Source: Spirochaetota bacterium
GTDB taxonomy: Bacteria; Spirochaetota; UBA12135; COTS27; CBDBHE01
Length of the DNA stretch: 64,000 nt
NCBI GenBank assembly: GCA_965205605.1
Contig: CBDBHE010000006.1
Span: 32,001 to 96,000, forward strand
Direction of reading: 5' to 3'
Shown here piece by piece: positions 2,252 to 19,234 of this stretch. Both the position numbers and the translations under genes were made by a program. The notes below the pieces were generated by a model, which saw only the letters and a program-made list of their open reading frames with translations, did no database searches and was not told the origin of the DNA. Numbering within the stretch: position 1 is the first letter of the stretch; every line of letters begins with the position of its first letter.

Positions 2252-3723
2252 AAAATAGATTGACAAACATGCTTTTAAAAAATTGGATTTTTTCTAAAAG
2301 ACCAGACCTTTCCTTGGCTATTTGTATTGGTATTTTTAGTATTTTTTTTTATACGCTTAATTTAACGCCTTCTATTTCTGCAGGAGATAATGGTGAACTT
2401 ACAACAGCGATGCATTTTCTTGGTGTTGCTCATGCACCGGGGTATCCGCTGCATTCTCTTATTGGGAAGATAGCAACGTTTATTCCCATCCACAATGTTG
2501 CTTGGAGAGCTAATTTTTTTTCTGCCATTTGTGGGGGGTTGACTCTTTTTTTTGCAACGCTTGTTTATATACGACTATTAATATTAGTCAAAGTGCTTAA
2601 ACGGTATGTGTTTATTAGTGCTGCAGTGGCAGCTTTGGCATTCATGCTTTCAGAAACCTTTTGGGGACAAGCGATTATTTGTGAAGTTTATACGATGTCT
2701 TCCATTTTTTATCCTCTTTTATTTTTAATTCTTCTTAGGTGGTATGAAGCTGTAGTTGGAAATAAAGAAAAAAAATACCCTTATTTTGGAGAAAATTATT
2801 TGTTAGCTTTTAGTTTTCTTTTTGGGGTTGCACTTTGTGGTCATCAAACGATCATCTTAATTGAAGTTTTTGTTGGTTGTTTTGTTTTATATGGTCTTTT
2901 AAAGCATGTGATTTTACAGAGGAAACTTTCTACTAGACAATTGTATATTGGGATGGGGTATCTTGGATTTGTTTGCTTGGTTTTTTTAATGGCTTGGATT
3001 TTTTATTATTTATATATTATGAGGCTTAAATCAAATCTTTATTTTGAAGATCATCTTAATGTCAAAATAGGACTTGGTGTTTTTGTTTCTTTAAATTTAG
3101 TGTTATTTTTTTATTACTTTTTTTTCAGATTTTTTGCTTCTGATTTATTAAACCCACATAATTCACTACAAAAGCTTTCTTTTTTATTAATTAAAATGTT
3201 TGTTTTTCTTTATCTTGGTTTTGCGATTTATCTTTATATGATTATTAGAAGTCATGGTAATCCGCCTATTAATTGGATGGGCATTAGCGAAGCAGAAAGT
3301 TTTTGGGGGAAATTAAGTAAATTTTTTAATGCCCTTCACAGGAAGCAATTTGGAAATACAGGAAAGATTCCTTTTAGTCTTCATAATTTCGTTTGGCAAA
3401 TTAAGATTTTAATTTTTAATATTCATGGGAGTCAATTTACGATATCGTTTTTTTTATTAGCCCTGGGAGGACTTTTAAAACTTTATTTACGTTCTACTTT
3501 TTGGTTTTGGTTTCTTTTAATAATGGTCATTAGTTATAATCTTCAGTTGACACTTTTTCTTCGGTTTGACTTTAACGATAAGGATATTTTTTTTGTTAAA
3601 GTTTTTTATATTTTCTCTTATTTTACTTTTTCAATTTTCATTGCGTTTGGAATCAGCTGGTTTTTGGAAGCTTTAGAAAAAGGAATTTCTTTTTTTAAAA
3701 AAGAAAAAAAAATTAAAGGTTAA
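2248..3723 (+). CDS. DUF2723/TMEM260-like GT-C membrane glycosyltransferase, N-terminal polytopic part
   Basis: Motifs GDNGELTTA, GVAHAPGYPL, EVY, YLYMIIRSHGNPPINW and LHRKQFG; about 10-11 hydrophobic segments. Confidence 0.85.
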   Translation: MKNRLTNMLLKNWIFSKRPDLSLAICIGIFSIFFYTLNLTPSISAGDNGELTTAMHFLGVAHAPGYPLHSLIGKIATFIPIHNVAWRANFFSAICGGLTLFFATLVYIRLLILVKVLKRYVFISAAVAALAFMLSETFWGQAIICEVYTMSSIFYPLLFLILLRWYEAVVGNKEKKYPYFGENYLLAFSFLFGVALCGHQTIILIEVFVGCFVLYGLLKHVILQRKLSTRQLYIGMGYLGFVCLVFLMAWIFYYLYIMRLKSNLYFEDHLNVKIGLGVFVSLNLVLFFYYFFFRFFASDLLNPHNSLQKLSFLLIKMFVFLYLGFAIYLYMIIRSHGNPPINWMGISEAESFWGKLSKFFNALHRKQFGNTGKIPFSLHNFVWQIKILIFNIHGSQFTISFFLLALGGLLKLYLRSTFWFWFLLIMVISYNLQLTLFLRFDFNDKDIFFVKVFYIFSYFTFSIFIAFGISWFLEALEKGISFFKKEKKIKG

Positions 3724-3732
3724 TTTTAAGCG

Positions 3733-5721
3733 ATGTTTTCTTCTAAAGTTTTATCTAGTGTTTTGGGGGGATGTTTTTTCTTCTTTTTGCTATTTGGTTT
3801 GGGAGATGGTTTTAATAAGAAGTATTCACAAATGATCATGTGGTATAAAAGTAAAGATAAAAATGATAATTCTAAAAATTGGGCTTGTCATAATTATGCA
3901 CATAATCTCATGATGACAGCAGAACCAAATGCTATTTTTATGACAGAAGGAGGTGATAATCAAGTTTTTTCACTTCTATACTTTTCTTATGTTGAGAAAA
4001 AAAGACCAGATATTGATTTTTATGATCAAAAAGGAAATGTTTTTCCAAGACTTTATGGAGATTTGATGAATGTGTTTTTTTATGATTTAGAAATCATTCG
4101 AGCGCTTAGAGATTTTCAACTTTATTCAACAGCACGACCTGTTTATCTAACTTGGAAAAGAGATGGCATTGAAAAAATTAGCTCGATAGGATTGCAAAAA
4201 ATTTATGAAAATACAGCTAAAAAAGCACAGCTTAATCGATCTTTTGTAGGAAAAAAATATGATTTAACAACCCTTGATAAAATTGAACAAGAAGTCGACA
4301 CCATGGTCCCTAAAGCAACTTTTGATATGAGATTTAAAAATGGAGACCTTATTAGTCAATTTGATATGAAAGAAAAAGGCCCTTGGTTTTTTAAAAATTA
4401 TGGACTCCTTTATAAGCTAGTGCCTCTTCGTTATAGTATTTTAGAAGCTTTGAAAAATAAAAAACAAGCTTCTTATTTTCAAATTGTTACTTACATTAAT
4501 CAGGTCTTTGATTTCCCCATTACTGTTTTAGAGTTAACAAAACAAGTTAAATTATTAGAGGCAGAAGGTTATATTAGTGAAAATGGAAGTCAAGTTTTTC
4601 TTCTTAAAAGTAGAAAAGATCCTTTTAATGAAAATTACTGGCAATTGTATAAAAAAGATTTTACTAATGTGGCAAATGCAAATCAATGGGATTATTTAAC
4701 TCGAGAAATTTTTTATAATTATTTTATTAATGAAGCAAGTGATTTACTTGAAAAGAAAAAAATTTTAGCTTTAGAAAAATCTACCTTACTTGGTGACTTG
4801 GTACTTACTTTGGACAAGCAAATAGAAACCCTTTATCAATCAGCTTGTCATTATGCTCATAACGTAAAATCTGCTTTTTACTTTTATGCTCGTTTTGCTT
4901 TAGATCAAGGTAATCTTAAAAAATCAACTTCTCTTTTTTCTAATTGCGCTAATGTGGATTATAATTTTTATGATCCGTATTTAACCATTTCAAAGTTATA
5001 TTTACAAAAGTCTTTATCAAGCCCTTTAGAAGACGAACAAAAATATTTATTGATTGCCCAAGAAAATGTTCAAGAAGCTAAGAAAATTTACCAAACAAAA
5101 GCCAAGGTACAAGGAACCCTTAAAAATATTGAAGAAGAAAAAAAGTATCAAGCCATCAAAGCCTTAGACCAACAAATCTCTAACTTTATACAGATCCCTA
5201 GAAAATCTCTTAATCAATTGATTAAAAATGCAAAACAAGGAGAGATAAAAGATCTAGAAACTCTTTTTATTGCTTATCAAAAACGAGCTGATTTTTTTCA
5301 AGCCAATAAAACTATTAATCAAATTTTACAAAAAAAACCTTTTAATATTCATTATACTTTAATGGCATATAACTTTTTTATCCAATATGATACTTTAAGA
5401 GGGATTGCTTTTTTAGAAAAAGTGGTCGCCAATTATGACTTTTACAAAGGAAAAAAACCTTCTATTTTTGATTTTCAAGAACGTTGTGCTTCAGACTATC
5501 TAAAACAAGCTGAAAGTAGTCTCAATAATCAAAATTATAAACAAGCTCTTTATTTTTATCGTCGCTCTCTTTATTATATGAACCTTTTTAAACAATTCAC
5601 TTTTGATCAGAAAACTAACCCATCACTTAGAAAACGAATTATTACTATAGAACGAACCGAACGTTTAGTTGAAGATCGGATTAAAAAAATAGAATCATTA
5701 TTATCAGAAAAAAAATTATAA
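3733..5721 (+). CDS. DUF2723-type C-terminal periplasmic part with TPR-like helical repeats
   Basis: One N-terminal hydrophobic segment, then YAHNLMMTAEPNAIFMTEGGDNQVFSLLYFSYVEKKRPD, matching the GDNDTFPLWY...RPD segment of full-length DUF2723 proteins. C-terminal half is helical/TPR-like. Confidence 0.75.
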   Translation: MFSSKVLSSVLGGCFFFFLLFGLGDGFNKKYSQMIMWYKSKDKNDNSKNWACHNYAHNLMMTAEPNAIFMTEGGDNQVFSLLYFSYVEKKRPDIDFYDQKGNVFPRLYGDLMNVFFYDLEIIRALRDFQLYSTARPVYLTWKRDGIEKISSIGLQKIYENTAKKAQLNRSFVGKKYDLTTLDKIEQEVDTMVPKATFDMRFKNGDLISQFDMKEKGPWFFKNYGLLYKLVPLRYSILEALKNKKQASYFQIVTYINQVFDFPITVLELTKQVKLLEAEGYISENGSQVFLLKSRKDPFNENYWQLYKKDFTNVANANQWDYLTREIFYNYFINEASDLLEKKKILALEKSTLLGDLVLTLDKQIETLYQSACHYAHNVKSAFYFYARFALDQGNLKKSTSLFSNCANVDYNFYDPYLTISKLYLQKSLSSPLEDEQKYLLIAQENVQEAKKIYQTKAKVQGTLKNIEEEKKYQAIKALDQQISNFIQIPRKSLNQLIKNAKQGEIKDLETLFIAYQKRADFFQANKTINQILQKKPFNIHYTLMAYNFFIQYDTLRGIAFLEKVVANYDFYKGKKPSIFDFQERCASDYLKQAESSLNNQNYKQALYFYRRSLYYMNLFKQFTFDQKTNPSLRKRIITIERTERLVEDRIKKIESLLSEKKL

Positions 5722-7587
5722 ATGAGCCTTTTATTTAAAGTTTTTTTTTATAGTTATCTTTTTTTAAGTATTTTTTTATTCGCTCAAGATAAAGGTTATT
5801 TAGAACTCAAACGTCTTTTTGAAAAAAGTCTTTATAATGAAGCTTATGATCGAGCTAATTATTATTTTGATGAACAAAAAAATGATTTTAGATTTCGAAA
5901 ACTTTATTTTGAAATTTTGCTAAAAAAAAAGCTATTTGACAAAGCTTTAGTAGAATTAGAATGGTTAGAAAAAATTGAAAAAACAACAGATACTTTTTAT
6001 TTAAGAGCTCTTTATTACTTTAATATTGGAGATCTAGTAAAGTCAGAAACTTTTTGTAAAAAAGTTCTTTTTTATAATAAGAGAAATATTCAAGCGATGT
6101 TGCTTTTAATTAAGATCAATAAAGAAAAAAAATACGACACCGTTGTTGAAAACCTTTTAGAAACTATTGAAACCATTGATCCAGAAAATGAAGAATTTCT
6201 TTTTGAAAAAGGGATTATTAGCCTTGATAAGGATTTAAAAAATTTTAAGTTAACGCTTAAAAAAATGCAGCAACATTACCCTGAATCTCACAAGTATTTT
6301 TATATGGAAGCTCGTTTTTCTCAAAAAGAAAAAGATTTTGAAAAAGCACTTTCTTGGATTAATAAAGCTATTTATTATCAGGCCAATAATCACCAATATA
6401 TTAATCTTAAATCTGAGGTGCTTTTTAAATTAAAAAAGTATGAATTCTTAATTAATTTCATTTTATCTAATAAGGATAAAGAGCCTTATGATTACTATCG
6501 GTTGGCGTTTCTTTATTATATGAAGACAAGAAAAAATCTTTGGAAAGTTGATAATTTGGATTATTTAGAAGTCAATATTTTGTCTATCATTAATCAGTGC
6601 CTTAATTTAAACGCTACTTTAGAAATTCCTAGGCGATTTGGAGAAATTATGGCTATTTCAAATACTTCTTTTAGATCTGAGGTTAGAAAAATTTTTACTC
6701 CTTACCATTATGAAAGAGCTAAATTTTTTCATAGTAAAGGATATTATGCGATGGCAAGATTTGAATATATTAAACTAATTCACCTCTTGCCACAAGAAGT
6801 AAAATATCGAAAAGAATACGCCTTGCTTTTAAAGGATCAAGGGCTGTATGCTTCTTATTTAAATCAGCTTGAGGTTGTTAAATTTTTGGAGAAGAAAGAA
6901 GATTACAAATTGGATACAAAAATTGGGCTACTTAAACGTAAGTTGAAAAATTCCCTTCATGTTAAAGAAAGCATTAAAAATGAAACTAGAAAAAAATTTA
7001 AAACAAGAATTTTATTTATTGCTCCAGATGAAGATATTTCTTTAGAAAATCCTCTTTATTTAGCTATTTATCATAATTTATTACTAGATACTTTTAAATT
7101 AGTTATTAAGTTTGATGTGGCATCGTGTTATTTTAAAGATTTTGAAAAAGAAATTTTGGAAAAAAGATATGATTTTTATGTTCGTTATTCTTTTCAGTTT
7201 AAAGAAGATAGAGTGGGAGTTGATTTTAATATTTTTGATGTTAATACTAGAAAAAAACTTTATCAGCATCAAATTTTTTCTTCTGGAAATGATAAGCTTT
7301 TTCAACTTAATTTTTCAGCTAAAAAATACTTTGATTCGATTATTTCTTTAAGGGGCAATGTTTTAAAAACAAAAGCAAATGGAGAGATTATTATTTCTTT
7401 AGGAATTTTAGATGGGCTTAAAAAAGATCAAGAAGTTTTGATTAAAAAAAACGATAGGACTTTTGTTGCTAAAGCGAAAGTAGTAATTCTTGATGAAAAT
7501 ATTGCAATGCTTGAATTGCTCGACAAAAGTAAAATTAATTTTATTAGAACTGGCTTTGTTATTGAAGAAAGTAAGAAAAAAAAATAA
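5722..7587 (+). CDS. Exported TPR protein with C-terminal beta domain (FlgT_C-like)
   Basis: Signal peptide ending LFA|QD; TPR-like repeats; C-terminal IIISLGILDGLKKDQEV...AKAKVVILDENIA pattern. Confidence 0.65.
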   Translation: MSLLFKVFFYSYLFLSIFLFAQDKGYLELKRLFEKSLYNEAYDRANYYFDEQKNDFRFRKLYFEILLKKKLFDKALVELEWLEKIEKTTDTFYLRALYYFNIGDLVKSETFCKKVLFYNKRNIQAMLLLIKINKEKKYDTVVENLLETIETIDPENEEFLFEKGIISLDKDLKNFKLTLKKMQQHYPESHKYFYMEARFSQKEKDFEKALSWINKAIYYQANNHQYINLKSEVLFKLKKYEFLINFILSNKDKEPYDYYRLAFLYYMKTRKNLWKVDNLDYLEVNILSIINQCLNLNATLEIPRRFGEIMAISNTSFRSEVRKIFTPYHYERAKFFHSKGYYAMARFEYIKLIHLLPQEVKYRKEYALLLKDQGLYASYLNQLEVVKFLEKKEDYKLDTKIGLLKRKLKNSLHVKESIKNETRKKFKTRILFIAPDEDISLENPLYLAIYHNLLLDTFKLVIKFDVASCYFKDFEKEILEKRYDFYVRYSFQFKEDRVGVDFNIFDVNTRKKLYQHQIFSSGNDKLFQLNFSAKKYFDSIISLRGNVLKTKANGEIIISLGILDGLKKDQEVLIKKNDRTFVAKAKVVILDENIAMLELLDKSKINFIRTGFVIEESKKKK

Positions 7588-8461
7588 CTTTTTTTTAAAA
7601 ATATTTTTTATTTCTTTTTTATTTCTTTTTTATTCTTTTGTTTATGGAAAACAAACCAATTACTATGGAATTGTTGTTTTAAAAAAAAGTAAACTTGAAG
7701 GAAAGGTTTTTGCTTTTAATCAACAAACATTACAGACTATTTTACTTAAAGAAAATGAAAATGTTTTGCCTTTTGGATCTTATGAAATCACGTCTTCTTT
7801 AAAAAGCTATCAAGATTTTAAAACTAATTTGATTCTTTCTAAAGATGACTTTAGAATTACCGTTTCTATTGATTATCGTTTAAATCCGTTTACTCTTAAT
7901 TTTAAAGGACTTGTAAGAAAGAGCGAGTTTTATTTTAATAAAAAGTATGTCACTACTTTTAAATCTCCCCAAGTAACACTTTCTAATATAGAAGGAGGAA
8001 AGCATCGTATTTTTTTAAAAAAGGGAGATTTATTTTATTATAAAACAATTGATTCCAAAGGGGCATCTACTATTACCATCAAAGATCCTGTGATGAATCA
8101 ATTACAATATAAGGCCTTACTGGCGTCATTAATGGGAATGATTCCTGGTTGTAATTTGTTTTTGCATTTGCCTCAGTCTTCACTTGAATATTTAATTCCG
8201 ACTTCTTTACTTTTTTATACAGGAGTTTTTTTAAAACTGAGTTTAAATCATATGAATGTTTTATTGCTTTCTCCTTATAATGATTCGATTAGAGATGATG
8301 CTTTTAATTGGATGATTATTTTATCTTCTATTTTTCATGTTCTTTTTGTTTATAATGGGACAGTGCAAGACTATAAAATGATTAAAAAAGATTACTTGCC
8401 TGTAAATGAACAAGGATTGATTTTATCTATAAAAGGGTTGTATTATAGTTATTATTTTTAG
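7562..8461 (+). CDS. Hypothetical exported/membrane protein with PEGA-like beta segments and C-terminal hydrophobic helices
   Basis: ORF is 7490-8461; the in-frame TTG at 7562 gives a signal peptide (MKKVRKKNNFFLKIFFISFLFLFYSFVYG). PEGA-like segments LPFGSYEITSSLKSYQDF and IEGGKHRIFLKK. Confidence 0.55.
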   Translation: MKKVRKKNNFFLKIFFISFLFLFYSFVYGKQTNYYGIVVLKKSKLEGKVFAFNQQTLQTILLKENENVLPFGSYEITSSLKSYQDFKTNLILSKDDFRITVSIDYRLNPFTLNFKGLVRKSEFYFNKKYVTTFKSPQVTLSNIEGGKHRIFLKKGDLFYYKTIDSKGASTITIKDPVMNQLQYKALLASLMGMIPGCNLFLHLPQSSLEYLIPTSLLFYTGVFLKLSLNHMNVLLLSPYNDSIRDDAFNWMIILSSIFHVLFVYNGTVQDYKMIKKDYLPVNEQGLILSIKGLYYSYYF

Positions 8462-11400
8462 AAAAGAATTTTTCCTTTAATGGAAAAATCAAAACCCATT
8501 TGAATATAATCATCTTCTCTTAAATAATTTTCTTGCCAGTTAGCATTGTTATTATAAGGGATTTTTAAATAAGCTTGAAAAGAATTAGCAACAAACTCAG
8601 AAATAACAGCAAGAACAAAAGAAGTTTCAAAAGAAAAGTTTTCAGTTACTTTATAAATATTTAAAAAAGTTGCTTTTGTTAGCCAATTTCTTACGATTTT
8701 ACTATTATTGGGATTTGTGAATAAAGAAAGATTTTTTCTACCGATGGCATTAGGTTGATCGTTAGGAGAGACTTTGCCGTCTTCTAAAAGCGTTGAACGA
8801 TTGACAAAGGGAAGGTCATAATCATAAAAAGTAAAATCAAAGCTAAGTCTTTTGGAAGAATTAGGAGGTAGGGAAAATAGATTAAAAAATTTTGTAGGAT
8901 TTTTGTTTTCCCAAGAAAAAGCAAGTCTAAAAGAATGCGTTCTTTTAATAAGGTCGGTGGGATCTTTTCCAAAATCATTGATATCTGAAAAAAAATAAAT
9001 ATTTTCTAATTCTCCTAAATTAAGTGTTTCTTCTGTCTTTAGGGTTGAGTCAGTAGATTTAATTTCATGATAGGGACCTATTCCCAGATAAGGCAAATAA
9101 TGAGTTTTGCCTTGTGTGTCATTATATCGATAACGAAGAGCATAATAAGTTTCTGTTTGATCAAAAATATAAGCACTTTGAATATTGACATGTTTGATTA
9201 ATTGATAATTATTATTAAGAGTAAATTTATATTTTTTGATCAAACTTTTTTCGTTAAAATCTTTGTTTTCATTAAACTCTAATGCGGCACTAAAATTAAT
9301 CGATCGTTCAAAATCTTTTGCTTTAGGGATCCATTTTCTACTGATATAATGACTAAGAGATTGAAAACGTTTTTCTAATTTTAAAGAACGATTTTGTTTT
9401 TGATAAATAATCCAATTTGTTTTTCTTGTTTCTAAGCTTCCAGAATATAAAAACTGACTTGGTAAGTAATCTTTTAAAATAGGGATTCTTGATAAATTCA
9501 TTTCCATACGAAATGATTCATTATGGCTGACTGTAGAACTAAACTCAGAATGAGACGTAAATTGAGAAATATGTTCAGTGCCACTAAAAGAAGGTTTTTT
9601 ACTTCTATAATTAATACTGCTATCAATCTCTTTAGAAGCCCAAAAACGATGTGCGTTTAAAAAAGAAAGTCGATTTCTTTCATCATTTTTTAATTTTCCT
9701 ATAAAGGGACTGATCACTGCATAAGCTAAATCGTTTAAAAACCAAAAATCAAAATAAGGAAAATAAAGAGCGGTGCTTCTTATTTTTTCAAAATAAGCTA
9801 ATTGTTGTTCTTCTCCTTTAAGGCCAATGCTTAAATCTGAAAAATTATCTTCAATTCCTTTCCAAAGTTTTTTTTCACTTGAAGAGAGATCATTTTCTTT
9901 TAAATCTAAAACATTATTTTCTAAAAGAGAAAGCCTTCTAGAAAAATTAAGTCGAAGCGATTTGAATAAATGATTTTTGAAAATAATAGGTAATGTAAGA
10001 TTTAGATTTAGTGTATTTTGAATGTTTTTATATTTTTGTTCGTCTTGATAAAAATCAACTAATTGATCACTATAATCGATGAGTAGTTTTTTTTCTTTAG
10101 AAGAATAATTATTTTGATTGGTTTGATAGAGTATAAACTCACTACTTAAGAAATCAGTTGTTGTTTTTCTAAAATTGTTTTCTGCATACGAATAAGAAAT
10201 AGATGCATTAAAACTAGATAAAAGAGGAGTATTAAAAATATAAACAGGGTTTAGATAAGAAAAAGTAATAGAATAATTTCTTTTTTTTGAAAGATATTTT
10301 GATTGATCTTCTATAAAAGGGTTACTAAAAATACTCGAAAACTCAGACCAATAAAATTCGTACCATTGGAGTTCGATGGATTCTTTTTCATAAAGGGAGG
10401 CGATTTTTTCTAAATCAAGTTTAGAAATATTAGTACTTAAAAGATTGTGTTGATCTTCTATTGTATAACGGAAATCAAGTCTAAATTTTTCAATGCCAAG
10501 AGTCGTTGAAATGGATTGTCTTTGGTAGAAGCTATATTCTAATTCTTCTAGGAGATTTCTTTTTTCATCAATTGAATCTGAAATATTTGGAAATTTTTCT
10601 AAAATAGGAAATCGTTTTTTATTTGAATTTTCGTCTAGGAGTTCTACAGGGTGGAAGAAAGGGTCTTGAGTGTTATAAAAAACAACTTCGTTAATATCAA
10701 CATTTTTTTTTAAAAGAGCTATTTTATTAAAAGTAGTGGCTATTTTGTATTCTTGATCAATGAATAAATCGGGAGTAAAATTAAATTTTTTTGATTCCCC
10801 TAAACTATAAGTTTTAACACTAATTTCATTTAAGTCTAAAGAATATTCTCGATTAATAACATTAGAGCTTAACGTCACAAAGCCAAGGTTTCGAGTTTTA
10901 TTATAACTGGCGGTATGTTGGATGGTGGGTATTATTAGATTATCTTTTAGATCAAGTTGAAAACTAAATCCAGTTAAATCTCTGTGAGTTAACGTTTGAT
11001 TTTCTTTAGGGAGAAAAGATTCTCTATATTCAGAGACATCGTAATCTTTTGATTTATTAAAAGAAAATCTAAGTCTATCTAGAATTTTTGTCTGAAGATT
11101 GAAAGAAGATAGTTCTTGTTGATTTCTGTTGGCTTGTTGATCAAGCGTACTAAAGCCAAGACCTTCGTGGCGATATTTAAAACTTGATTGGGTTTCACTA
11201 ATGATATTACGCTGTCGATATTGTAAAGGTTCATTTTGTTTGTAAGTAAGACCAAAGCGATAGGCATGACCGAAAAAAATTTCACTGTTATCCACATGAA
11301 ATTCATTTAACCAAAAACGTCCTGTTGCATTTTGCCCTTTAGAATCCACCCCTATTAAAAAATAACTTACTTCATAAAGGCTCGGGTTTCCTATTTTTCG

Positions 11401-14400
11401 AATTGTATAATCATCAAAATCTACATTTTCTAACTTTCCTTCATCTCGATTTCCTTCGTTTTTCACCTCTAAAGAGCTTTTCGAAAGCAGAAAATAATGG
11501 TCGTCTCTATAAGCAACTCTATTCATGAATTGTTGTTCTTGGTAGTCTTTTCCTCTTAGTTTTATATTTAGTTCGTGCCATTTATTTTGATTATTTCCAT
11601 TACTTTCTCCGATATTTTTAAAAGGAATTCGGAGTTCAAAATAGTTGTTTGGATTATCTCCAAATTGGTAAACAAGTTCTTCATTTCCAGAAGAGTAATC
11701 CACAGGATAAAAATATAATTTAAAATCTTTATAATAAGATAAATTAAGAGTTCTCTCTCCCTTTGCTTCATAGCGTTCTACCCAGGCAAAGCGTCCATCT
11801 ATACTATTGCTAATATTTTTATTTTCAACTCCATTTAAGTTATATTCGATATTTTGAGCTTGTTCAGTGAGGGTTTCAAATTCACGACTTAGCAAATTCC
11901 CATGCAGTCTTTCATAAGCCCTACGATATGCTTTTGAGAGGTGGTTTTTGTTGTAAAAATCATCTTGTTTAGTATTAATAGTTGAAAACAAAAACTGTCT
12001 TGGTGTAATCACTTCATTATTATCGACTTTAGCCTGCTGCCAAGTCGTGCCTTTAAAGCGAATGCTATCAATCACCACACGTCCTTTATTAAAAGCAGAG
12101 TTTGTAATTTCTAAAAAATTAAGTCGTAAATGCGTGACTTTAGTAAGACTATTATTAGTAACAAGATTCCTAAGAGGAACGGTGATTTTGATATATCGCT
12201 CTTTTTGAAACACGTCTGTTGAAGAACTATTGTTGTCTAAAATTTCATAAAAAGCTCTATTGGTATTAAAAGTATTTAAATTAAGCCCTTGGTCACTAAT
12301 GTACTCAGAATTAAACAGAAGAAAGTAATTTGTTGGGTTTTGACCTAATTCTGAACTAGGATAATTTATAATTTGTTCTTGAGAACTTGTTAAAGTGTCA
12401 AGTTGACCGTTTTGGTTTAAATCTTCTGTATCTTTTCGACCATTTCCTTCTGCAATATCATTTGGACTATTCCATCCTTTGTCACCGGCTCCTAATTTTG
12501 TTTCAATAGTATTAAAAATAGGAGATTTATTATAATTAAAAGTAAAACCATCAGCATCACTAATAAAATTTTCTTCATCCAGCTGACCATCTAAGTCAAA
12601 GTCTTCATTCAAATTGCCAATATCAATTGAAAACCCAAGTACTTTTGGATTATCTTCTAAATTCCCACTATTATCTGTTGTAGGAAGAAGTTTATAAATG
12701 ATTTCGATGGTGTTATAGCGTTTAAAATCACTAGATCTACCTACAAATTGAGCTCTGGTAATAAAAGAAACATAGCCATTAGAAGGACTTGTCGTTGCAT
12801 GAGAGGCTTCGAAATCATAATCAAAAACTAAAGAACTTTGATAGGGATAAAGTGTTCTACTTAAATGCCCTTCACTAACAACTTGATAAGGACCAGGCCT
12901 CACATTAAAAGGTCTAAAGTTGACATCTTGACGATAAATAAGGCCATTGGCATTATTGGCTCGCATAGCTTGTTCATTGTTTAAAGTAAACTCAATAGGC
13001 ACTTTATTGTCTGGATTTAAAAAAGAATATTCTGAAAAATCAATGTAATAACTTTTTCCAAGAGAACGATTTGCTAATGTTTCTAGCTGTGGGTTGGCTG
13101 TTAAATAATAACTATGATGATTCCCTGGAAAAGAAAAAGTTAAATCATCGCCTTCAACTGTATTAATGATTGCTTTTCCATTATTATTTGGGTTGTAAAT
13201 AGAAAAAGCATATTCACCATCTAAAATCAGAGAAGATTTATTAAGACGACGGCGTTGAAACATGCTAATTAAATCAATAGAAGTATCAATGTCACCTACT
13301 AACTGACTGGTTGATTCAAAACCTATTTGAGGAGCATTTAAACTGGCTTGGCCTAAAGAACCCGCTAAAGTCATACCGATATAATTTTCTTCTCCTCTAA
13401 ATTTCCAATCCATTCTTGCTGCTGCGATGGCTTTTTGAAGAGATGAACCAAAAGGTCGATATTCATAATAAACTTTTAATTTATTTCCTCTATACAATTC
13501 TTCTCCTTTATTAAAAAAAATTCTTCCAAAACTAGTAACGGTATATTTTTTTTTTTCTAATAGCTGATTATCTTTATAAATAATTACAGATTCAGGAATA
13601 ATATTAAAGCGTTCTAAATCAATATAATTTTTGTATTGTGTTTTATAGTTTAATTCAAGGTTAATGCGATTGTTATTTTCTGCATTTGGTTCTTTTACAG
13701 AATACATATTGGCATAATAGGCACTTTGTCTTGTAAAAACGGCTTGATCTTCAAAATAAAAATAACCTTTATTAAGGCTTATTTTACTATCACCATAAAT
13801 ATCAAAAGTATGATTAAAGGTCCCTCTCCACTCACTAGGATCAATTTTGATATTATTGTTATCTGTAATGAGTATCTTTAAACTTTCTATTTCAATGGAT
13901 TTTTCAATACGGTACCGATTTCTAAGTTCATAATAATTAGTAATATCTCTATCACCTAATTGTTCATCGGAGACAAAAATAATCACAAAGTTTGTTAAAG
14001 TATCACTTAAGTTTTGTCTATGATGAATTGTATAACTAGGGCCAAAAAAGTAACTAGCGTTTGTCCCTGTTGTCGAACGATAAGCTCCATTTGTTTGTTG
14101 AAAATTATAAAATAAAAGCGTGTGACCTTCTGGTTTACTTTTTTTGTGTTCAAAAACCCCCATATCATTTTCAATTTCATAACTTGCTTCACTGAGCTTT
14201 TTAAAATAACGACTGCCATTAATAATACCATCTCCATTGATATTACTAATGACTAAAAAAGCTTGAGAATAATTATCAGAATCTGTAATTTCTTCGTAAT
14301 AGTGAGCTTCATTAATATTACGATCAGGTAATTGAAAATATCTATTTTTAATATAATCAATGTCTCTTATGGTTTTTTGTTCTTTGCTTTCGATTGTAAA

Positions 14401-15315
14401 TTCTTTGACTTCTGAAACCCCTGCCGATAAGCTTAAAGAAGATTCAAAACTAAAAGGCCCTTTTTTCCCTTGAAGTAAAACACCAAATCCTTCTTTTTGA
14501 AGCCCTCCTGCTGTAATAAATTCAGATTTTGACCTAACGTTTAAATCAATTTGTCCAAACTTAATTTTTTTCAAAAGCTCATCATTATCTCCTACATACT
14601 CAATACGATAAGTATTCCTTCTATTTCGACTATTATGATTAACCTCTAGCTCTATTTTTCTTCCTATTTTTCCTTTGAGGTTTAAAATTAAGTTTTGATC
14701 GGCTGTGAGCCCATTACCAATTAAAGTAGGATCTAAAAAAGGCTCTTGAATTAGAGGGTTAAGACCTGTGAAGAAATCTTGAAAAATATATTGATAGGCG
14801 TAATTTCTTTTTTGTCGTTCTGAAGGGATGAGTTTGTTAATATACTGTGAAAACCCATAACGAAAACTAATATCTTGATTTCCAAATAAGCGTAAGCTTG
14901 TTTCAATATCTTCAAAAGAAAGCCCTAAATTTAATCCTTTTTTTTCTGTTTCATTTTTCCCTTCTCTTTCTCTTTGAATTTTTTTTAGTAACCATTTTGC
15001 TTCTTTATCATAAGTGATCAAGTGATCTCCAAAAAAATCTTCTCCGTATTTATAATAATCTTTTAAATAAAGATTTAAAATGATAGCTCTTAAATAGGTG
15101 CTTTCTTCACTAAGTTGGTCTAAAGAACTGTAATCAAGATTAGTGTAGATATAAAAGTTTTTATTAATTTCTTTTTCATTATTTTCCAGATTATTTTGGC
15201 TTAACTCTAAGAGCTTGTCTTCTAAAAGACTTGGGAAATCATAAATCTCTTCACTATAAATATAAACAAAAAATAAGAAGAAAATTAAAATAATTCTTCT
15301 TAAAAATGAGAACAA
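8458..15315 (-). CDS. sprA: Very large outer-membrane beta-barrel protein, SprA/Sov (T9SS translocon)-like
   Basis: Signal peptide. SprA-like motifs: LKGKIGRKIELEVNH...IEYVGDNDELLKKIKFGQIDL...FGVLLQGKKGPF, DIGNLNEDFDLDGQLDEEN, DTEDLNQNGQLD, GNPSLYEVSYFLIGV...GRFWLNEF. Amphipathic strands, C-terminal Phe, 2285 aa. Confidence 0.72.
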   Translation of the reverse strand: MFSFLRRIILIFFLFFVYIYSEEIYDFPSLLEDKLLELSQNNLENNEKEINKNFYIYTNLDYSSLDQLSEESTYLRAIILNLYLKDYYKYGEDFFGDHLITYDKEAKWLLKKIQREREGKNETEKKGLNLGLSFEDIETSLRLFGNQDISFRYGFSQYINKLIPSERQKRNYAYQYIFQDFFTGLNPLIQEPFLDPTLIGNGLTADQNLILNLKGKIGRKIELEVNHNSRNRRNTYRIEYVGDNDELLKKIKFGQIDLNVRSKSEFITAGGLQKEGFGVLLQGKKGPFSFESSLSLSAGVSEVKEFTIESKEQKTIRDIDYIKNRYFQLPDRNINEAHYYEEITDSDNYSQAFLVISNINGDGIINGSRYFKKLSEASYEIENDMGVFEHKKSKPEGHTLLFYNFQQTNGAYRSTTGTNASYFFGPSYTIHHRQNLSDTLTNFVIIFVSDEQLGDRDITNYYELRNRYRIEKSIEIESLKILITDNNNIKIDPSEWRGTFNHTFDIYGDSKISLNKGYFYFEDQAVFTRQSAYYANMYSVKEPNAENNNRINLELNYKTQYKNYIDLERFNIIPESVIIYKDNQLLEKKKYTVTSFGRIFFNKGEELYRGNKLKVYYEYRPFGSSLQKAIAAARMDWKFRGEENYIGMTLAGSLGQASLNAPQIGFESTSQLVGDIDTSIDLISMFQRRRLNKSSLILDGEYAFSIYNPNNNGKAIINTVEGDDLTFSFPGNHHSYYLTANPQLETLANRSLGKSYYIDFSEYSFLNPDNKVPIEFTLNNEQAMRANNANGLIYRQDVNFRPFNVRPGPYQVVSEGHLSRTLYPYQSSLVFDYDFEASHATTSPSNGYVSFITRAQFVGRSSDFKRYNTIEIIYKLLPTTDNSGNLEDNPKVLGFSIDIGNLNEDFDLDGQLDEENFISDADGFTFNYNKSPIFNTIETKLGAGDKGWNSPNDIAEGNGRKDTEDLNQNGQLDTLTSSQEQIINYPSSELGQNPTNYFLLFNSEYISDQGLNLNTFNTNRAFYEILDNNSSSTDVFQKERYIKITVPLRNLVTNNSLTKVTHLRLNFLEITNSAFNKGRVVIDSIRFKGTTWQQAKVDNNEVITPRQFLFSTINTKQDDFYNKNHLSKAYRRAYERLHGNLLSREFETLTEQAQNIEYNLNGVENKNISNSIDGRFAWVERYEAKGERTLNLSYYKDFKLYFYPVDYSSGNEELVYQFGDNPNNYFELRIPFKNIGESNGNNQNKWHELNIKLRGKDYQEQQFMNRVAYRDDHYFLLSKSSLEVKNEGNRDEGKLENVDFDDYTIRKIGNPSLYEVSYFLIGVDSKGQNATGRFWLNEFHVDNSEIFFGHAYRFGLTYKQNEPLQYRQRNIISETQSSFKYRHEGLGFSTLDQQANRNQQELSSFNLQTKILDRLRFSFNKSKDYDVSEYRESFLPKENQTLTHRDLTGFSFQLDLKDNLIIPTIQHTASYNKTRNLGFVTLSSNVINREYSLDLNEISVKTYSLGESKKFNFTPDLFIDQEYKIATTFNKIALLKKNVDINEVVFYNTQDPFFHPVELLDENSNKKRFPILEKFPNISDSIDEKRNLLEELEYSFYQRQSISTTLGIEKFRLDFRYTIEDQHNLLSTNISKLDLEKIASLYEKESIELQWYEFYWSEFSSIFSNPFIEDQSKYLSKKRNYSITFSYLNPVYIFNTPLLSSFNASISYSYAENNFRKTTTDFLSSEFILYQTNQNNYSSKEKKLLIDYSDQLVDFYQDEQKYKNIQNTLNLNLTLPIIFKNHLFKSLRLNFSRRLSLLENNVLDLKENDLSSSEKKLWKGIEDNFSDLSIGLKGEEQQLAYFEKIRSTALYFPYFDFWFLNDLAYAVISPFIGKLKNDERNRLSFLNAHRFWASKEIDSSINYRSKKPSFSGTEHISQFTSHSEFSSTVSHNESFRMEMNLSRIPILKDYLPSQFLYSGSLETRKTNWIIYQKQNRSLKLEKRFQSLSHYISRKWIPKAKDFERSINFSAALEFNENKDFNEKSLIKKYKFTLNNNYQLIKHVNIQSAYIFDQTETYYALRYRYNDTQGKTHYLPYLGIGPYHEIKSTDSTLKTEETLNLGELENIYFFSDINDFGKDPTDLIKRTHSFRLAFSWENKNPTKFFNLFSLPPNSSKRLSFDFTFYDYDLPFVNRSTLLEDGKVSPNDQPNAIGRKNLSLFTNPNNSKIVRNWLTKATFLNIYKVTENFSFETSFVLAVISEFVANSFQAYLKIPYNNNANWQENYLREDDYIQMGFDFSIKGKILF

Positions 15316-15342
15316 GGGGATTAATTTAGATGAATTGTTTTT

Positions 15343-17118
15343 TTATTTAAGGCTTCTAATATCATTATAGAAAACAAATACAAATAAGCAAATCAAAAAT
15401 ATAAGCCCACAAATATGGATTACGTTTAAAATTTCTTGCTTAATAGGTTTTCTTCGAAAAAGTTCGTATAAAAGTATGATAAAATGTCCCCCATCAACAA
15501 CAGGAATAGGTAACATATTCACAATGGCAAGACTAACTCCTATTTTAGCAAAAAGTAAAATAAAATAGGCCAGTCCTTTATTTTCAGCAACATAATAAGA
15601 AACTTCAAAAATTCTAATAGGTCCCCCTAGCATTTTCACAGACATCTTTCCTGTAATCAGTCTTTGTAAAAAAGTATAAACTTCTTTTAATTCGTCACCT
15701 GTCTTTCCAAACGCTTTGTATAAAGAGGTGCCAAGGGAATAACGAATAATTTTATTTTCTTCTTTTAATTTAACAAGATGACCTTTTTCTTTTAAATCAA
15801 GTATTAATTTTGAAATTGAAACAACTTTAGGTTTCCCTCTTCTTACGATGACAAAATCAACGATGGTTTCTTTAATTTTTGTTTTTAAAATTTGATCCCC
15901 TACTTTAAGACCTTCACCTAATTTTGAAAGGGAAGGATTTAAATAGCTAACTTGGTTGGCTTTTTCCTTAAAGGTGATAGAATGAGAAATCCCAAGAAAA
16001 TACCTTTCTTTATTAGAATCAAATTGAGGGGTTAAAGTTAAATTGGTAATAATATCCTCTCTTTTAATAGAGAGGATAATGGGTTTATTTGCTTGGATTT
16101 TTTTAGAAGATTGGTTTAGATCTTCCCATCCTTTAATAACTTCTCCGTTAAAAGAAAGAATTTCATCCCCATTTTTAAACCCTGCTTTTTCAGCGGCTCC
16201 ATTAGGAAGCACATCGATGATGGCTTTTAACATATAGCCTTTTGAAAAGATTTTTTCAGCAGGAATGATTGTCTTTTGAATGACAATTTGGTTTTCTTTT
16301 CTAACAAATAAGGTTACTTGTTTGTTAGGGTTATTGTAAATGAGATCGTAAATACCGTAAGGAGTTTGCCTAGTGAGGTTAGCAGTGGGGATGTGTGCTT
16401 TAATAATTTCTCCTTGTGTTATAAGAGAGTTTGAAACATCATTTTTTTGATGAATAATGGCAGCACTATAAGGCAAAATTCCTAATTGAGGAGGAAGATC
16501 ATTTTTTTGATTTATTTTTTTAAGCTTTGTTTTAAAAGTAAGGTTTTTATCAAGTCGTTTAACCCCAAGCACCACTTCTTTAGAAGTATCTTTAATAAAA
16601 GCAACTTCTGTTAAGATTTCTTCCCAAGTTTCTACTTTTTTATCATTGATATGAGTGACTTCATCTCTTAGCTGAACCCCACTGTTATTAATAGGAAAAG
16701 AAGGCATAAAACCACCTACTTTATTGGTTGTAAACGGAACTCCGATTTTAAAAGCAATTACAATTAAAAAATAAGCGAAAATGAGGTTCATAATCACCCC
16801 TGCAGTCACAATAAAAATTCTTTGTAAAGGAGTTTTGGATAAATAATGACCTTCTTCAAAGAGATTTTTTTTTGTTTTTTTGGTATTACGTTTAGGAAGA
16901 TCTTCTTGGCCTAGCATTTCAACATAGCCCCCGATAGGCAGTAGGGCAATAATGTAATCAGTCCCTTTTTTGTCTGTATACAGATGCAGGATTTTAGGTC
17001 CCATGCCAATAGCAAATGTTTTTACTTTTACTCCCACTATTCTAGCAGCTAAAAAATGACCTAGCTCGTGAACAAAAATAGTTAAAGTAAACCCAATTAG
17101 AATCATTAAAACAATCAT
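15343..17118 (-). CDS. rseP: RIP metalloprotease RseP (M50) with multiple PDZ domains
   Basis: HELGH, LPIGGYV and NMLPIPVVDGGH motifs; PDZ segments; adjacent to dxr. Confidence 0.95.
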   Translation of the reverse strand: MIVLMILIGFTLTIFVHELGHFLAARIVGVKVKTFAIGMGPKILHLYTDKKGTDYIIALLPIGGYVEMLGQEDLPKRNTKKTKKNLFEEGHYLSKTPLQRIFIVTAGVIMNLIFAYFLIVIAFKIGVPFTTNKVGGFMPSFPINNSGVQLRDEVTHINDKKVETWEEILTEVAFIKDTSKEVVLGVKRLDKNLTFKTKLKKINQKNDLPPQLGILPYSAAIIHQKNDVSNSLITQGEIIKAHIPTANLTRQTPYGIYDLIYNNPNKQVTLFVRKENQIVIQKTIIPAEKIFSKGYMLKAIIDVLPNGAAEKAGFKNGDEILSFNGEVIKGWEDLNQSSKKIQANKPIILSIKREDIITNLTLTPQFDSNKERYFLGISHSITFKEKANQVSYLNPSLSKLGEGLKVGDQILKTKIKETIVDFVIVRRGKPKVVSISKLILDLKEKGHLVKLKEENKIIRYSLGTSLYKAFGKTGDELKEVYTFLQRLITGKMSVKMLGGPIRIFEVSYYVAENKGLAYFILLFAKIGVSLAIVNMLPIPVVDGGHFIILLYELFRRKPIKQEILNVIHICGLIFLICLFVFVFYNDIRSLK

Positions 17119-17140
17119 TTTATTTTTCCTTAACTTTTGT

Positions 17141-17149
17141 ATTGTATCA
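17141..17149 (-). promoter_or_regulatory. Extended -10 promoter element upstream of rseP and the sprA-like gene
   Basis: TGATACAAT on the minus strand, followed by AAGGA and the rseP ATG 22 nt downstream. Confidence 0.45.
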
Positions 17150-17160
17150 CTAAAATAGTT

Positions 17161-18296
17161 TTAATGCTTTGAGATAATTCCTTTTTTTATTTCTTTATCT
17201 AAAGTAATAATGTCTTTTAAAGTCATGTTATTTTTGATAGGGTAGGTTGAAACAGCTTCATAAACAATTGAATAAATTTCTTTAAAAGTTATCTTTTTAA
17301 GTAAAAAAAGATTGACAGCTGCTTCATTAGCTGCATTTAAAATTGCGTTACAAGAGCCTCCTTTTTTTCCAGATTCAAAAGCAAGTTTGAGTAAAGGAAA
17401 TTGCTTTAAATTAGTTTTAAAAAACTGAAGTGATGCCACTTCCCAAAGCTTAAAAGATGGTAAAGACGATGGGTATAGGTGGGGATAGGTTAGGGCGTTT
17501 TGAATGGGTATCTTCATATCACGATGTCCTATTTGAGCGTAAAGTTCACCTTCGATAGTTTCAATAAAAGAATGAACAATTGATTGAGGATGAATAATGG
17601 TTTCTATTTTTTCATAAGGCAGATTAAAAAGGTAATGTGCTTCAATAATTTCTAGCCCTTTATTCATCATCGTTGCTGAATCAATTGAAATTTTTTTCCC
17701 CATTTTCCAAGTAGGATGATTTAAAGCTTGCTCAACACTTGGGTTTTTGATATTTTGATTAAAAAAAGGACCTCCAGAAGCGGTTAGAATTACTTTTTTC
17801 AAGTTTTTTTTTTCTAAGTTTTTAAGCATCATAAAAATAGCAGAATGTTCACTATCAATCGGCAAAAGTTTGATTTTTTTTTTTTTGCTTTTTGAATGAC
17901 TAAATCTCCTGCCATCACAAGCGTTTCTTTATTGGCTAAAGCGATATCAGCTTTTTTTTCAATGGCTAATAGAGTTGGTTCTAAACCCACACTGCCAACA
18001 ACGGCATTAATAAGGAGTTGGAAAGAGCTTTCTAAAACAGCTTCTTGGATGTTATTTTTAATTAATATTTTGGGGAATTCTTTTTTAATTTCTTGATAAG
18101 CTTTTTCATTATCAATGCAGATAATTTCAGGGTTTAAAAGATTAATTTGTTTTTTTAATAGGTTTTTGTTTGTATGGGCACTAAGACCTACTATTTTATA
18201 TTTAGGGGTTTTTTCTAGGTGGTTTAAGTGTTGGATGGTTGCAATTGTATTGGTGCCAATAGAGCCAGTGCTACCTAAAATAAAAACACGTTTCAT
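17161..18296 (-). pseudogene. dxr: 1-deoxy-D-xylulose-5-phosphate reductoisomerase split by a 1-nt frameshift in an A13 tract (ORFs 17829-18296 and 17161-17865)
   Basis: N-terminal part has LGSTGSIG and ANKETLV; C-terminal part has PIDSEH, LTASGGPF, HPTWKMGKKISIDSATMMNKGLE. One extra A at 17874-17886 restores AKKKKIKLLPIDSEH. No other lesion seen, so it may be functional or an assembly error. Confidence 0.9.
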
Positions 18297-18312
18297 TTTT
18301 TAAAATGAACGG

Positions 18313-18903
18313 TTATTCAATTAAAGAACGATGGAATAAAGCTTTTTTTAAAGTAATTTCATCAATATATTCTAATTCTGTTCCTATTGGGATGCCAATA
18401 GCAATACGACTAAGTTTGATTTTTTTGTCTTTAAACTTACTTCTTATGATTTTAATAGTTGCTTCGGCTTCGATTGTTTGTTCTAAAGCAAAAATGACTT
18501 CATCAACGGGGTAAGTGAGACGTTTTAGTAGGGTATTAATGGATATATCTTGTTCATTAATATCATTGATAGGTGAAATAAGCCCACCTAAGACATGATA
18601 AAGACCTAAATAAGCATGCGCTCTTTCTATGTTAAGGGCATCTTGAATGCTCTTAACAACACAAATACTTTTCTTGCTTCTCTTTGACGAAGTGCAAATT
18701 TTACAAGGTTTTTGCTCAGAAATGAGCCCGCAAATATGACAACGAACGGTTTTTTCAATAAAGTCTTCAATGGATTGTGTGAGTAGCTTGACTTCTCGTT
18801 TGTTGGATTCTAAAAGATAAAAAGCAATATTTTCCGCTGATTTTTTTCCGATAGAAGGCAGTCTTTTTAAAGCTTGAATCACATTATTAAAGCTGGAAGC
18901 CAT
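18313..18903 (-). CDS. recR: Recombination protein RecR
   Basis: LPSIGKKSA HhH motif, C4 zinc finger (CHICG...CKIC), YHVLGGLISP; dnaX-ybaB-recR synteny. Confidence 0.96.
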   Translation of the reverse strand: MASSFNNVIQALKRLPSIGKKSAENIAFYLLESNKREVKLLTQSIEDFIEKTVRCHICGLISEQKPCKICTSSKRSKKSICVVKSIQDALNIERAHAYLGLYHVLGGLISPINDINEQDISINTLLKRLTYPVDEVIFALEQTIEAEATIKIIRSKFKDKKIKLSRIAIGIPIGTELEYIDEITLKKALFHRSLIE

Positions 18904-18916
18904 TAAAAAATTCTAA

Positions 18917-19234
18917 TTAAAAAGAAGGAAGGTCAGGAATATTGAATCCTTTTGTAAGGCCTTGAAGTCCACTTTTTGCTTCTTCGTCTGCTTTGGCAAT
19001 AGCACTATTATAGGCAGAAACAATTAGATCTTCTAAAACTTCAACTTCCTTAGGATCCACAACTTCTTTACTAATTTTAATTTTTTTTGCTTCTTTTTTC
19101 CCATTGATAGTAACCGTAACTAAATCGCCACCTGAAGAAGCTGAAAACTCTTTATTCTCTAGTTTTTGTTGTGCTTTTAGCATTTCTTGTTGTAATTTTT
19201 GAGCTTGTTTTAACATATTGTTCATTTGATTCAT
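18917..19234 (-). CDS. ybaB: YbaB/EbfC nucleoid-associated protein
   Basis: KQAQKLQQEM, SGGDLVTVTINGKKE, LEDLIVSAYN. Confidence 0.95.
   Translation of the reverse strand: MNQMNNMLKQAQKLQQEMLKAQQKLENKEFSASSGGDLVTVTINGKKEAKKIKISKEVVDPKEVEVLEDLIVSAYNSAIAKADEEAKSGLQGLTKGFNIPDLPSF

Follow-up and report, generated by a model that had tools for sequence, protein, structure and literature searches.

Does a spirochaete encode the translocon for type IX secretion (the system known as T9SS), and if it does, what could such a pore serve in the cell? The question is raised by a gene at positions 8458..15315 on the minus strand of a 64,000-nucleotide stretch of DNA (hereafter the window; contig CBDBHE010000006.1 of a Spirochaetota bacterium, GCA_965205605.1), which an earlier note, made from the letters alone, had described as a full-length SprA/Sov-like gene. 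In the available excerpts of the literature, T9SS was detected only in Bacteroidetes (PMC4793230), a PorV/PorQ-family barrel is described in Brachyspira pilosicoli and T9SS is called a trait of the FCB (Fibrobacterota, Chlorobiota and Bacteroidota) group (bioRxiv 10.1101/2025.01.03.631275), and a further article on T9SS concerns PorE only (PMC12204202). Our search, with subscription journals and supplements outside it, found no paper on a spirochaete SprA homologue. The gene examined here belongs to the SprA family and lies in a phylum where T9SS is not described. We propose, with a probability of about 0.6, that its product is a SprA-family translocon which was passed on by vertical descent and serves a lean, T9SS-like route.

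Identification of an intact SprA-like gene

The SprA-like gene is one intact open reading frame (ORF) with a TTG start (8458..15315, minus strand, stop included), which encodes 2285 residues according to the ORF list and the translation. A six-frame search with the family model TIGR04189 gave a match that sits within a stop-free open frame of 2294 residues. Since it stays open over 6.9 kb in DNA of 28–31% G+C, this is not a chance frame. The protein starts with (M)FSFLRRIILIFFLFFVYIYSEE, and its residues 1-23 (15247..15315, minus strand), with a basic FSFLRR, a hydrophobic IILIFFLFFVYIY and then SEE, were read by eye, without a predictor, as a signal peptide. The translation closes with ...IKGKILF, and its last residue, Phe, is aromatic as is typical of outer-membrane barrels.

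Four motif blocks are seen in the translation, namely LKGKIGRKIE...YRIEYVGDNDELLKKIKFGQIDLNV...EGFGV, SIDIGNLNEDFDLDG, GRKDTEDLNQNGQLD and IGNPSLYEVSYFLIGVDSKGQNATGRFWLNEFHVD. The length of the ORF, the signal-like start, the terminal Phe and the four motifs in this order had all been read from the window by the earlier note, and the translation bears them out. The profile alignment to the solved SprA places the first block (KGKIG...FGV) on SprA 155-329 and the last (GNPSL...FWLNE) on SprA 1350-1562; hence the blocks are homologous positions and not look-alikes. The composition of the gene had also been described as that of its neighbours, and its G+C content (0.278-0.308 in 2-kb bins) indeed falls inside the window range of 0.255-0.346. 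Together with the fold and the descent described below, these data show that a spirochaete has a genuine SprA-family gene, which is intact and has resided there since ancient times, a conclusion that is solid for fold and homology.

Homology and predicted fold

When the single sequence was searched with phmmer against PDB chains, no match was obtained at E<=10. Profile A1, built from the 8 closest family members, matched Flavobacterium johnsoniae SprA (6h3i_A and 6h3j_A) at E 4.3e-22 and 80.3 bits, in three collinear stretches: query residues 187-359, 521-747 and 1184-1397 correspond to SprA 155-329, 641-887 and 1350-1562. TIGR04189, for which the curated cut-off is 200 bits, matched a piece covering residues 150-400 with 41.3 bits (E 3e-11, profile positions 134-256), and in six frames its score was 39.8 bits (E 4.1e-11). 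The matching stretch (14329..14700, minus strand) holds the KGKIG...FGQIDL...FGV block. Seven homologues were scanned with the same model; five of them (P0005-P0009) were matched at 29.6-114.4 bits in three stretches each, and P0003 and P0004 gave no match. The feature neighbours in the ESM Atlas, which serve as a lead only, were SprA_N clusters in 26 of 30 cases (score 0.96).

The best-studied counterpart is F. johnsoniae SprA (PDB 6H3I, 6H3J, 8GL6 and 8GL8), the T9SS outer-membrane translocon, with Sov as its Porphyromonas gingivalis orthologue. The two proteins are alike in size (2285 vs 2403 residues), each has a signal-type N-terminus, the three profile blocks are collinear, and the GxxG..FG and GNP..G.[FV]W.NE motif blocks are common to both. 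They differ in that identity is merely 12-15% in structural alignments, and in that the present gene belongs to a spirochaete and lies within an rseP housekeeping operon. We conclude that the protein truly belongs to the SprA/Sov family, though it has diverged very far.

For structure prediction, the protein was modelled as two separate halves (residues 100-1299 and 1290-2285) from alignments of 36 rows, which comprised the window sequence and locus references. In a Foldseek search with the N-terminal model (mcdcbac226e85), ranks 1-4 were all SprA chains (E 1.9e-31 to 5.4e-19) and rank 5 had an E value of 2e-3; the gap between the SprA chains and the next entry exceeds 16 orders of magnitude. 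VIA-align superposed residues 34-1126 of this model on 8gl6_A 129-1393 (Z 17.1, rmsd 10.1, 850 aligned residues), and the next unrelated entry reached Z 10.6. Judged from the model, the N-terminal half resembles SprA specifically in its fold. This half (residues 133-1225; 11641..14919, minus strand) is predicted to hold the first barrel strands and cap-type domains; 14 strands of at least 10 residues are seen in the model, some of them in cap domains.

The C-terminal model (mb3bdf4bede0a) consists largely of a predicted membrane beta-sheet region (residues 1344-2285; 8461..11286, minus strand) that ends in Phe and contains 24 strands of 13-22 residues according to DSSP. VIA-align matched residues 55-996 of this model to SprA 1515-2401 (Z 12.2, 573 residues), collinear to the end of the chain, and the two halves together are collinear with SprA from about 129 to 2401. 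The structure of SprA is reportedly a single-chain barrel of about 36 strands. The strand total found here (24 plus some of the 14), which comes from two half-models and is not a single-model count, is compatible with 36.

Host, distribution and descent

The source genome (G000), with a completeness of 91%, has a size of 1.69 Mb and consists of 8 contigs. It gave three matches to FlaA (168, 77 and 68 bits vs a cut-off of 25), a model that had no match in 14 control genomes. The nearest named relatives of its PolA are from a 'Spirochaetota bacterium' (44% identity), from sequences filed under two molluscs (45-46%) and from Brachyspira (39-41%), and the closest named homologues of the pore itself are proteins of 'Spirochaetes bacterium' and 'Brevinematia bacterium' metagenome-assembled genomes. 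The source organism is a deep-branching spirochaete and not a member of the FCB group. FlaA and PolA thus support the host that the earlier note had suspected, and a placement of the contig in the FCB group was not found.

The mollusc-filed relatives of PolA (polA at 35008-37731 of the window) are scallop and oyster records, and rank after unnamed metagenome proteins. They are probably bacterial DNA within host assemblies, and hint at a spirochaete lineage that lives with marine invertebrates.

A protein collection clustered at 90% yielded only eight matches, with 24-100% identity and the window's own protein included. Profile A2 matched 6668 cluster representatives at E<=1e-3 and 1912 at E<=1e-30, and 75 loci of the family were confirmed by tblastn in species-representative genomes. 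These loci belong to Spirochaetota, Elusimicrobiota, Firestonebacteria, Fermentibacterota, Cloacimonadota, Gemmatimonadota, WOR-3, TA06 and others. SprA-like proteins of Elusimicrobiota, Firestonebacteria, Fermentibacterota, Cloacimonadota, Gemmatimonadota, WOR-3 and other metagenome-assembled genomes (L007-L076; 1700-2100 residues) are of the same family and also have an aromatic last residue. They differ from the present protein in being 200-500 residues shorter and in forming a separate, well-supported clade.

Within the phylum, 40 genomes served as the set of relatives; 12 of them, including two closed genomes, encode a SprA-like protein. The closed genomes G024 and G038, with a form of about 1900 residues, suggest that there are isolates with the gene. 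Two genomes of the same order, G004 and G002, have orthologues with 35% and 31% identity, respectively. In both, the order dnaX-ybaB-recR-dxr-rseP-SprA-like gene and the two convergent genes beyond it are the same as in the window (rseP followed by the SprA-like gene at L078/L111 in G004 and at L079/L110 in G002). Since this synteny is kept although the orthologues are only 31-35% identical, long residence of the gene can be concluded. In an unrooted FastTree phylogeny of 972 N-terminal columns and 36 rows, without Bacteroidota SprA, the 11 spirochaete rows were split from the 25 rows of other phyla by a branch with 100% support; the window sequence grouped with G004 (97%) and these two with G002 and G009 (100%). 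The long residence that the earlier note had deduced from composition is thereby borne out by synteny in two same-order genomes and by the grouping of the spirochaete sequences. Vertical inheritance within a deep spirochaete order is the best reading of these data, and if it is correct, the origin of the translocon moves back before the FCB radiation.

Cargo and shuttle genes in related spirochaetes

The larger spirochaete genomes that bear the pore contain many cassettes in which a gene for a secreted protein that ends in a type-A C-terminal domain (CTD) is followed directly by a gene of the PorV/PorQ family of about 310-350 residues. Examples of these cassettes (L083-L098; G004, G002 and G012) are L094:2687-4408 + 4453-5370 and L083:555-3740 + 3830-4822. 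At E<=1e-15, 47 PorV-like matches were counted in G012, 42 in G040 and 31 in G027. The PorV-like proteins encoded directly after CTD genes in G012 pass the PorV/PorQ-family model NF033709 (164 and 148 bits vs a cut-off of 90).

Presence of the pore goes along with these components among the 40 relatives, in counts that overstate the case because the relatives are not independent, and that are therefore indicative only: the type-A CTD model TIGR04183 (E<=2e-5) was matched in 11/12 genomes with the pore and 5/28 without it (one genome 73% complete), PorV-like proteins (E<=1e-15) were found in 10/12 and 9/28, and at least three PorV-like copies in 7/12 and 0/28. Compared with the PorV/PorQ family of T9SS shuttle and anchor barrels (NF033709), the relatives thus encode many such proteins directly 3' of CTD genes, whereas the source genome has two or three distant look-alikes (<=23.6 bits), and FadL-like barrels also occur in 9/28 spirochaetes that have no SprA-like gene.

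Results that weigh against a secretion route

Several results, in addition to the non-independence of the relatives, weigh against the proposed reading. Family models recognise the protein poorly. SprA_N of Pfam (PF14349) gave no match at E<=1 with the full protein, its N-terminal piece or the 7 homologues; TIGR04189 was not reported at E<=1 when NCBIfam was run on the full-length protein, for which Pfam and NCBIfam returned noise only (Raftlin, VC1465); and all TIGR04189 scores of the protein and its homologues lie under the 200-bit cut-off. Both half-models are of moderate confidence (predicted local distance difference test, pLDDT, 67-69), the N-terminal one with pLDDT 66.8 and a predicted template modelling score (pTM) of 0.48, the C-terminal one with pLDDT 69.0 and pTM 0.65. 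At Z 12.2, the SprA match of the C-terminal model is level with those to BtuB (11.8) and MtrB (11.6), and in Foldseek the SprA chains were at ranks 2, 3, 5 and 6 among generic large barrels.

The identity given by the earlier note stands in part. Profiles and fold make the protein a true, very divergent member of the SprA/Sov family, but a 'full-length canonical' SprA is not borne out for a protein that fails the TIGR04189 cut-off and has no Pfam SprA_N match. The hidden Markov model (HMM) search that it had suggested produced a sub-threshold TIGR04189 match of 41.3 bits and nothing from SprA_N, and the suggested comparison with SprA structures was SprA-specific for the N-terminal half but no better than generic barrels for the C-terminal half.

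The partners of the pore are the second difficulty. TIGR04183 (Por_Secre_tail, type A CTD) had no match in the source genome at E<=2e-5; its best E value there was 0.045, a level at which 12/14 control genomes also match. A CTD profile of our own, which recovers the cargo of the relatives at E 1e-17 to 1e-31, found nothing in the source genome beyond internal repeats and a single, weak match at a C-terminus (hhalign probability 28%). No match to PorV (NF033710) or PorP (TIGR03519) was obtained there. In favour of the route, a profile of 12 spirochaete PorV-like barrels picked out three ORFs (E 3.5e-10, 2.7e-7 and 8.9e-6), and the two that were tested reached hhalign probabilities of 96% and 92%; these candidates score <=23.6 bits with NCBIfam, far under the curated cut-offs, and none lies in the window. 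GldL (TIGR03513) and GldM (TIGR03517) gave no match in the source genome with models that had no positive control in any search, and PorU (NF033707) likewise gave none with a model that had no positive control.

The relatives show the same gaps. No GldL match was found in 20 pore-bearing genomes (8 of them from other phyla, near-complete and closed ones included), again without a positive control, and GldM gave one weak, unexamined match in these 20 (G019, 23.8 bits). The PorU model matched four relatives solely at its positions 938-1095, the CTD part, and no PorU body was found in them; no GldL or GldM was found in G012, G027 and G040, and no PorU body in G012 and G027. A lead to GldM in G004, an ORF of 536 residues, was rejected as a methyl-accepting chemotaxis protein by sequence.

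Leads to other components in the source genome were also examined and discarded. The only match to the GldK model (TIGR03525, 105 bits vs a cut-off of 350) is an FGE (formylglycine-generating enzyme)-sulfatase of 343 residues (Pfam, 263.5 bits) beside sulfatase genes, without gldLMN neighbours. A sulfatase gene next to the FGE-sulfatase gene (C2:127991-129410; L102:8991-10410) is split into ORFs of 102 and 377 residues, possibly by a frameshift in the assembly. A type-B CTD lead (CHU_C, 43.7 bits), which likewise weighs against the route, is a 255-residue ORF at C8:76023-76790; NCBIfam reads it as Lsa66-N-like with FlgD-Ig, and it scores 32.8 with TIGR04131 vs a cut-off of 35, and is for these reasons not counted as cargo. 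CHU_C matches in a protein of 1991 residues (C7:47327-53302; L104:3331-9303) were rejected as a type-B CTD because they are internal repeats: the protein has FlgD-Ig/CHU_C-like repeats with a period of about 228 residues and a C-terminal OmpA domain, and among known families it scores best with Lsa66, an adhesin of Leptospira (158 bits, under the cut-off).

Two further regions of the source genome, both outside the window, deserve mention. At C8:73458-76790 (L100:4458-7788), an OmpA-family protein of 492 residues, a PorV-like barrel of 367 residues (hhalign 96%) and the FlgD-Ig/CHU_C-like protein of 255 residues are encoded by a run of three genes, with the barrel gene in the middle; this trio may resemble the PorE-PorP-type-B-cargo trio of P. 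gingivalis. At C6:281459-286916 (L103:4463-9916), five serial ORFs look like one broken or mis-assembled secreted protein of about 950 residues, which starts like a signal peptide and whose end weakly resembles a CTD; the last of the five same-strand ORFs, with 211 residues and an IY..W..GxY pattern, is the weak CTD candidate, and a barrel-like ORF of 843 residues ending in Phe follows. The run may be a decayed cargo-and-shuttle cassette.

Set against the system of F. johnsoniae SprA, the source genome had no above-cut-off PorV, GldL/M, true GldK, PorU or CTD cargo in our searches, of which GldN was not a target. Transport by T9SS is thought to need the GldL/M motor. The earlier note had concluded on a divergent T9SS-like or stand-alone export system; a SprA-family pore outside Bacteroidota is upheld, but an operating T9SS in this genome is not, since our searches yielded no CTD cargo above threshold and neither GldL/M nor PorU, and what the GldK model matched is an FGE-sulfatase. 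For the source organism, the evidence of a functioning secretion system is incomplete.

Proposed route and alternatives

Homology, fold, synteny, taxonomy and co-occurrence are shown by the data; channel function, direction of transport and the way in which transport is energised are inferred. As a SprA/Sov-type protein, the product would form a giant beta-barrel from one chain in the outer membrane, capped on the extracellular side, of the protein-conducting channel type. Sec would export it, and insertion into the outer membrane would fall to BamA, which is encoded elsewhere (C8:16260-17339, away from the SprA-like gene); proteins folded in the periplasm would then pass through the pore to the cell surface. 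Across the phylum, the lean route would consist of the SprA-like pore and many pairs of CTD-cargo and PorV/PorQ-family genes, and would operate without a recognisable GldL/M motor, GldK or PorU sortase (GldN was not searched for). In the reduced genome of 1.69 Mb, the cargo set may have been lost, shrunk, decayed or diverged past recognition. Two other candidates for the assembly machinery were dismissed: a C5 ORF of 985 residues taken for BamA encodes a peptidase-MA/PD40 protein whose end is of the Omp85 type, and a C2 ORF of 2299 residues taken for TamB encodes a TIG-domain protein.

If this proposal is true, a candidate route of protein export is added for the spirochaetes, which include several pathogens or symbionts, and the lineage provides a natural 'minimal' system for asking what the pore can do without GldLM energy. 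For the source organism, it flags a predicted surface-exposed protein of 2285 residues.

The alternative that survives best, though we hold it to be unlikely, is that the SprA-family barrel has a CTD-independent core role in the envelope, either in outer-membrane biogenesis or in the export of a housekeeping surface component. A gene of 6.9 kb has been kept intact in a 1.69-Mb genome that has no detectable CTD cargo, and it sits in a dxr-rseP envelope and housekeeping operon that is conserved across the order. In E. coli it is bamA that follows rseP at that position, but BamA is present elsewhere in the source genome. Outside the spirochaetes, the family gene has lptF/lptG directly upstream in divergent orientation in 32/57 loci, counting those whose upstream sequence extends over 1 kb or more (19/20 in Gemmatimonadota, 3/5 in Elusimicrobiota), whereas this adjacency was seen in 0/10 spirochaete loci. 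LptF/G occur in 38/40 relatives, including 26/28 without the pore, and are absent from 2/12 that have it. Moreover, presence of the pore tracks CTD cargo and PorV-like expansions. No LptD-type protein was found in the source genome with PF04453 or PF03968, which would suit an envelope role, but these LptD negatives are uninformative, in the case of PF04453 because among the controls this model matched only E. coli and Caulobacter. The idea of an LptD substitute is not supported in spirochaetes, where LptF/G are present regardless of the pore.

The pairing with lptF/lptG is exemplified by L009:5027-7495 + 7538-12616 and L014:6120-8617 + 8735-14338, and is mostly divergent (L007-L075). No paper on the adjacency of SprA-like genes and lptF-lptG was found. 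A ComF-like gene (DZR_2; Pribosyltran in L007 and L009) often follows the pore gene, as in L007, L008, L009 and L010, and L018 has Pribosyltran only.

Envelope role and secretion route can also be combined, in a reading that we put forward tentatively and regard as possible but doubtful. An ancient SprA-pore route without motor or sortase would extend beyond the FCB group (Spirochaetota, Elusimicrobiota and several candidate phyla), each CTD cargo gene having its own PorV/PorQ-like gene, and in this host-reduced spirochaete the pore, now a core envelope gene within the rseP operon, would have been kept for longer than any cargo that can be recognised. Such retention would point to a second, housekeeping job for SprA-type barrels, and the tight divergent lptF/lptG pairing in other phyla hints at a job of this kind.

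A complete canonical T9SS in the source organism, whose other parts are too divergent or AT-biased for HMMs trained on Bacteroidota or lie in the roughly 9% left unassembled, is more doubtful again. Pfam and, at full length, NCBIfam miss even the SprA-like protein, so that other parts could be missed too; the GldL and GldM models lacked a positive control, the genome is 91% complete, and it took a lineage-specific profile to bring out the divergent PorV-like barrels. However, the 20 family-bearing genomes, from several phyla, gave no GldL match and one weak GldM match; PorU matches were limited to the CTD part of the model; the GldK match is a plain FGE-sulfatase beside sulfatase genes; and the lineage-specific CTD profile, for all its E values of 1e-17 to 1e-31 in relatives, finds none in the source genome.

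Finally, a superficial likeness, in which an unrelated very large outer-membrane barrel or adhesin matches through a shared beta-rich composition, would suit the unmet curated cut-offs, the empty single-sequence search against PDB and a C-terminal half that matches TonB-dependent transporters and MtrB as well as SprA, but it is already disfavoured, and very improbable, in view of the three collinear profile stretches to the solved SprA (E 4.3e-22), the Foldseek gap of more than 16 orders of magnitude for the SprA-specific N-terminal half, the collinear match from SprA 129 to 2401 and the SprA_N clusters among the ESM feature neighbours.

Gene neighbourhood and minor observations

Directly upstream of the SprA-like gene, and all on the minus strand, Pfam searches found the housekeeping run that the earlier note had listed: rseP (15343..17118; site-2 protease, Peptidase_M50 at 190 bits and PDZ domains), dxr in two ORFs (17161-18296), recR (18313-18903), ybaB (18917-19234) and dnaX (19269-20726). 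The end of rseP lies 27 nucleotides before the TTG codon of the SprA-like gene, and co-transcription of the two is probable; no obvious ribosome-binding site was seen in this 27-nucleotide gap. Among 18 window ORFs scanned with Pfam (those beyond 24.4 kb lay outside the scan), no porV, porU or gldKLMN was found, in agreement with the earlier inspection.

The dxr ORFs overlap and are split at a run of 13 A (17874-17886, minus strand). The dxr genes of G002 and G004 each read through in one frame, and a Logan contig from the same sample carries the same A13 run at a depth of about 3.7x. The split could be an assembly indel or a true frameshift.

On the other side, two genes on the plus strand converge on the pore gene. 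The nearer one (7490..8461), whose end abuts that of the SprA-like gene, encodes a membrane protein of 323 residues with counterparts at the same position in G004 and G002 (BLASTP E 5e-19 and 7e-19); it matched no Pfam family at E<=0.01, and one orthologue is weakly PEGA-like. The adjoining gene (5722..7587) encodes a protein of 621 residues of the tetratricopeptide-repeat (TPR) type with a signal-like N-terminus, found at the same position in G002 and G004 (phmmer E 2.7e-65 and 7.4e-39), with otherwise only weak TPR matches. In the plus-strand region 2248-7587 as a whole, a gene of the TMEM260 type (protein O-mannosyltransferase-like) comes first, then a gene for a protein of 662 residues without a confident family and then the 621-residue TPR gene, all three converging on the pore gene.

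Contigs of three public runs, all from one study, hold the stretch around the gene (8000-18400 of the window) at low depth, and no RNA run is listed among the public runs that hold it. Some of the public-run contigs are about 10% divergent over parts of the SprA-like gene (e.g. 9256-10042 and 10575-11221). It therefore seems that the sample also contains a related second strain that carries this gene, which fits the 87%-identical protein P0003.

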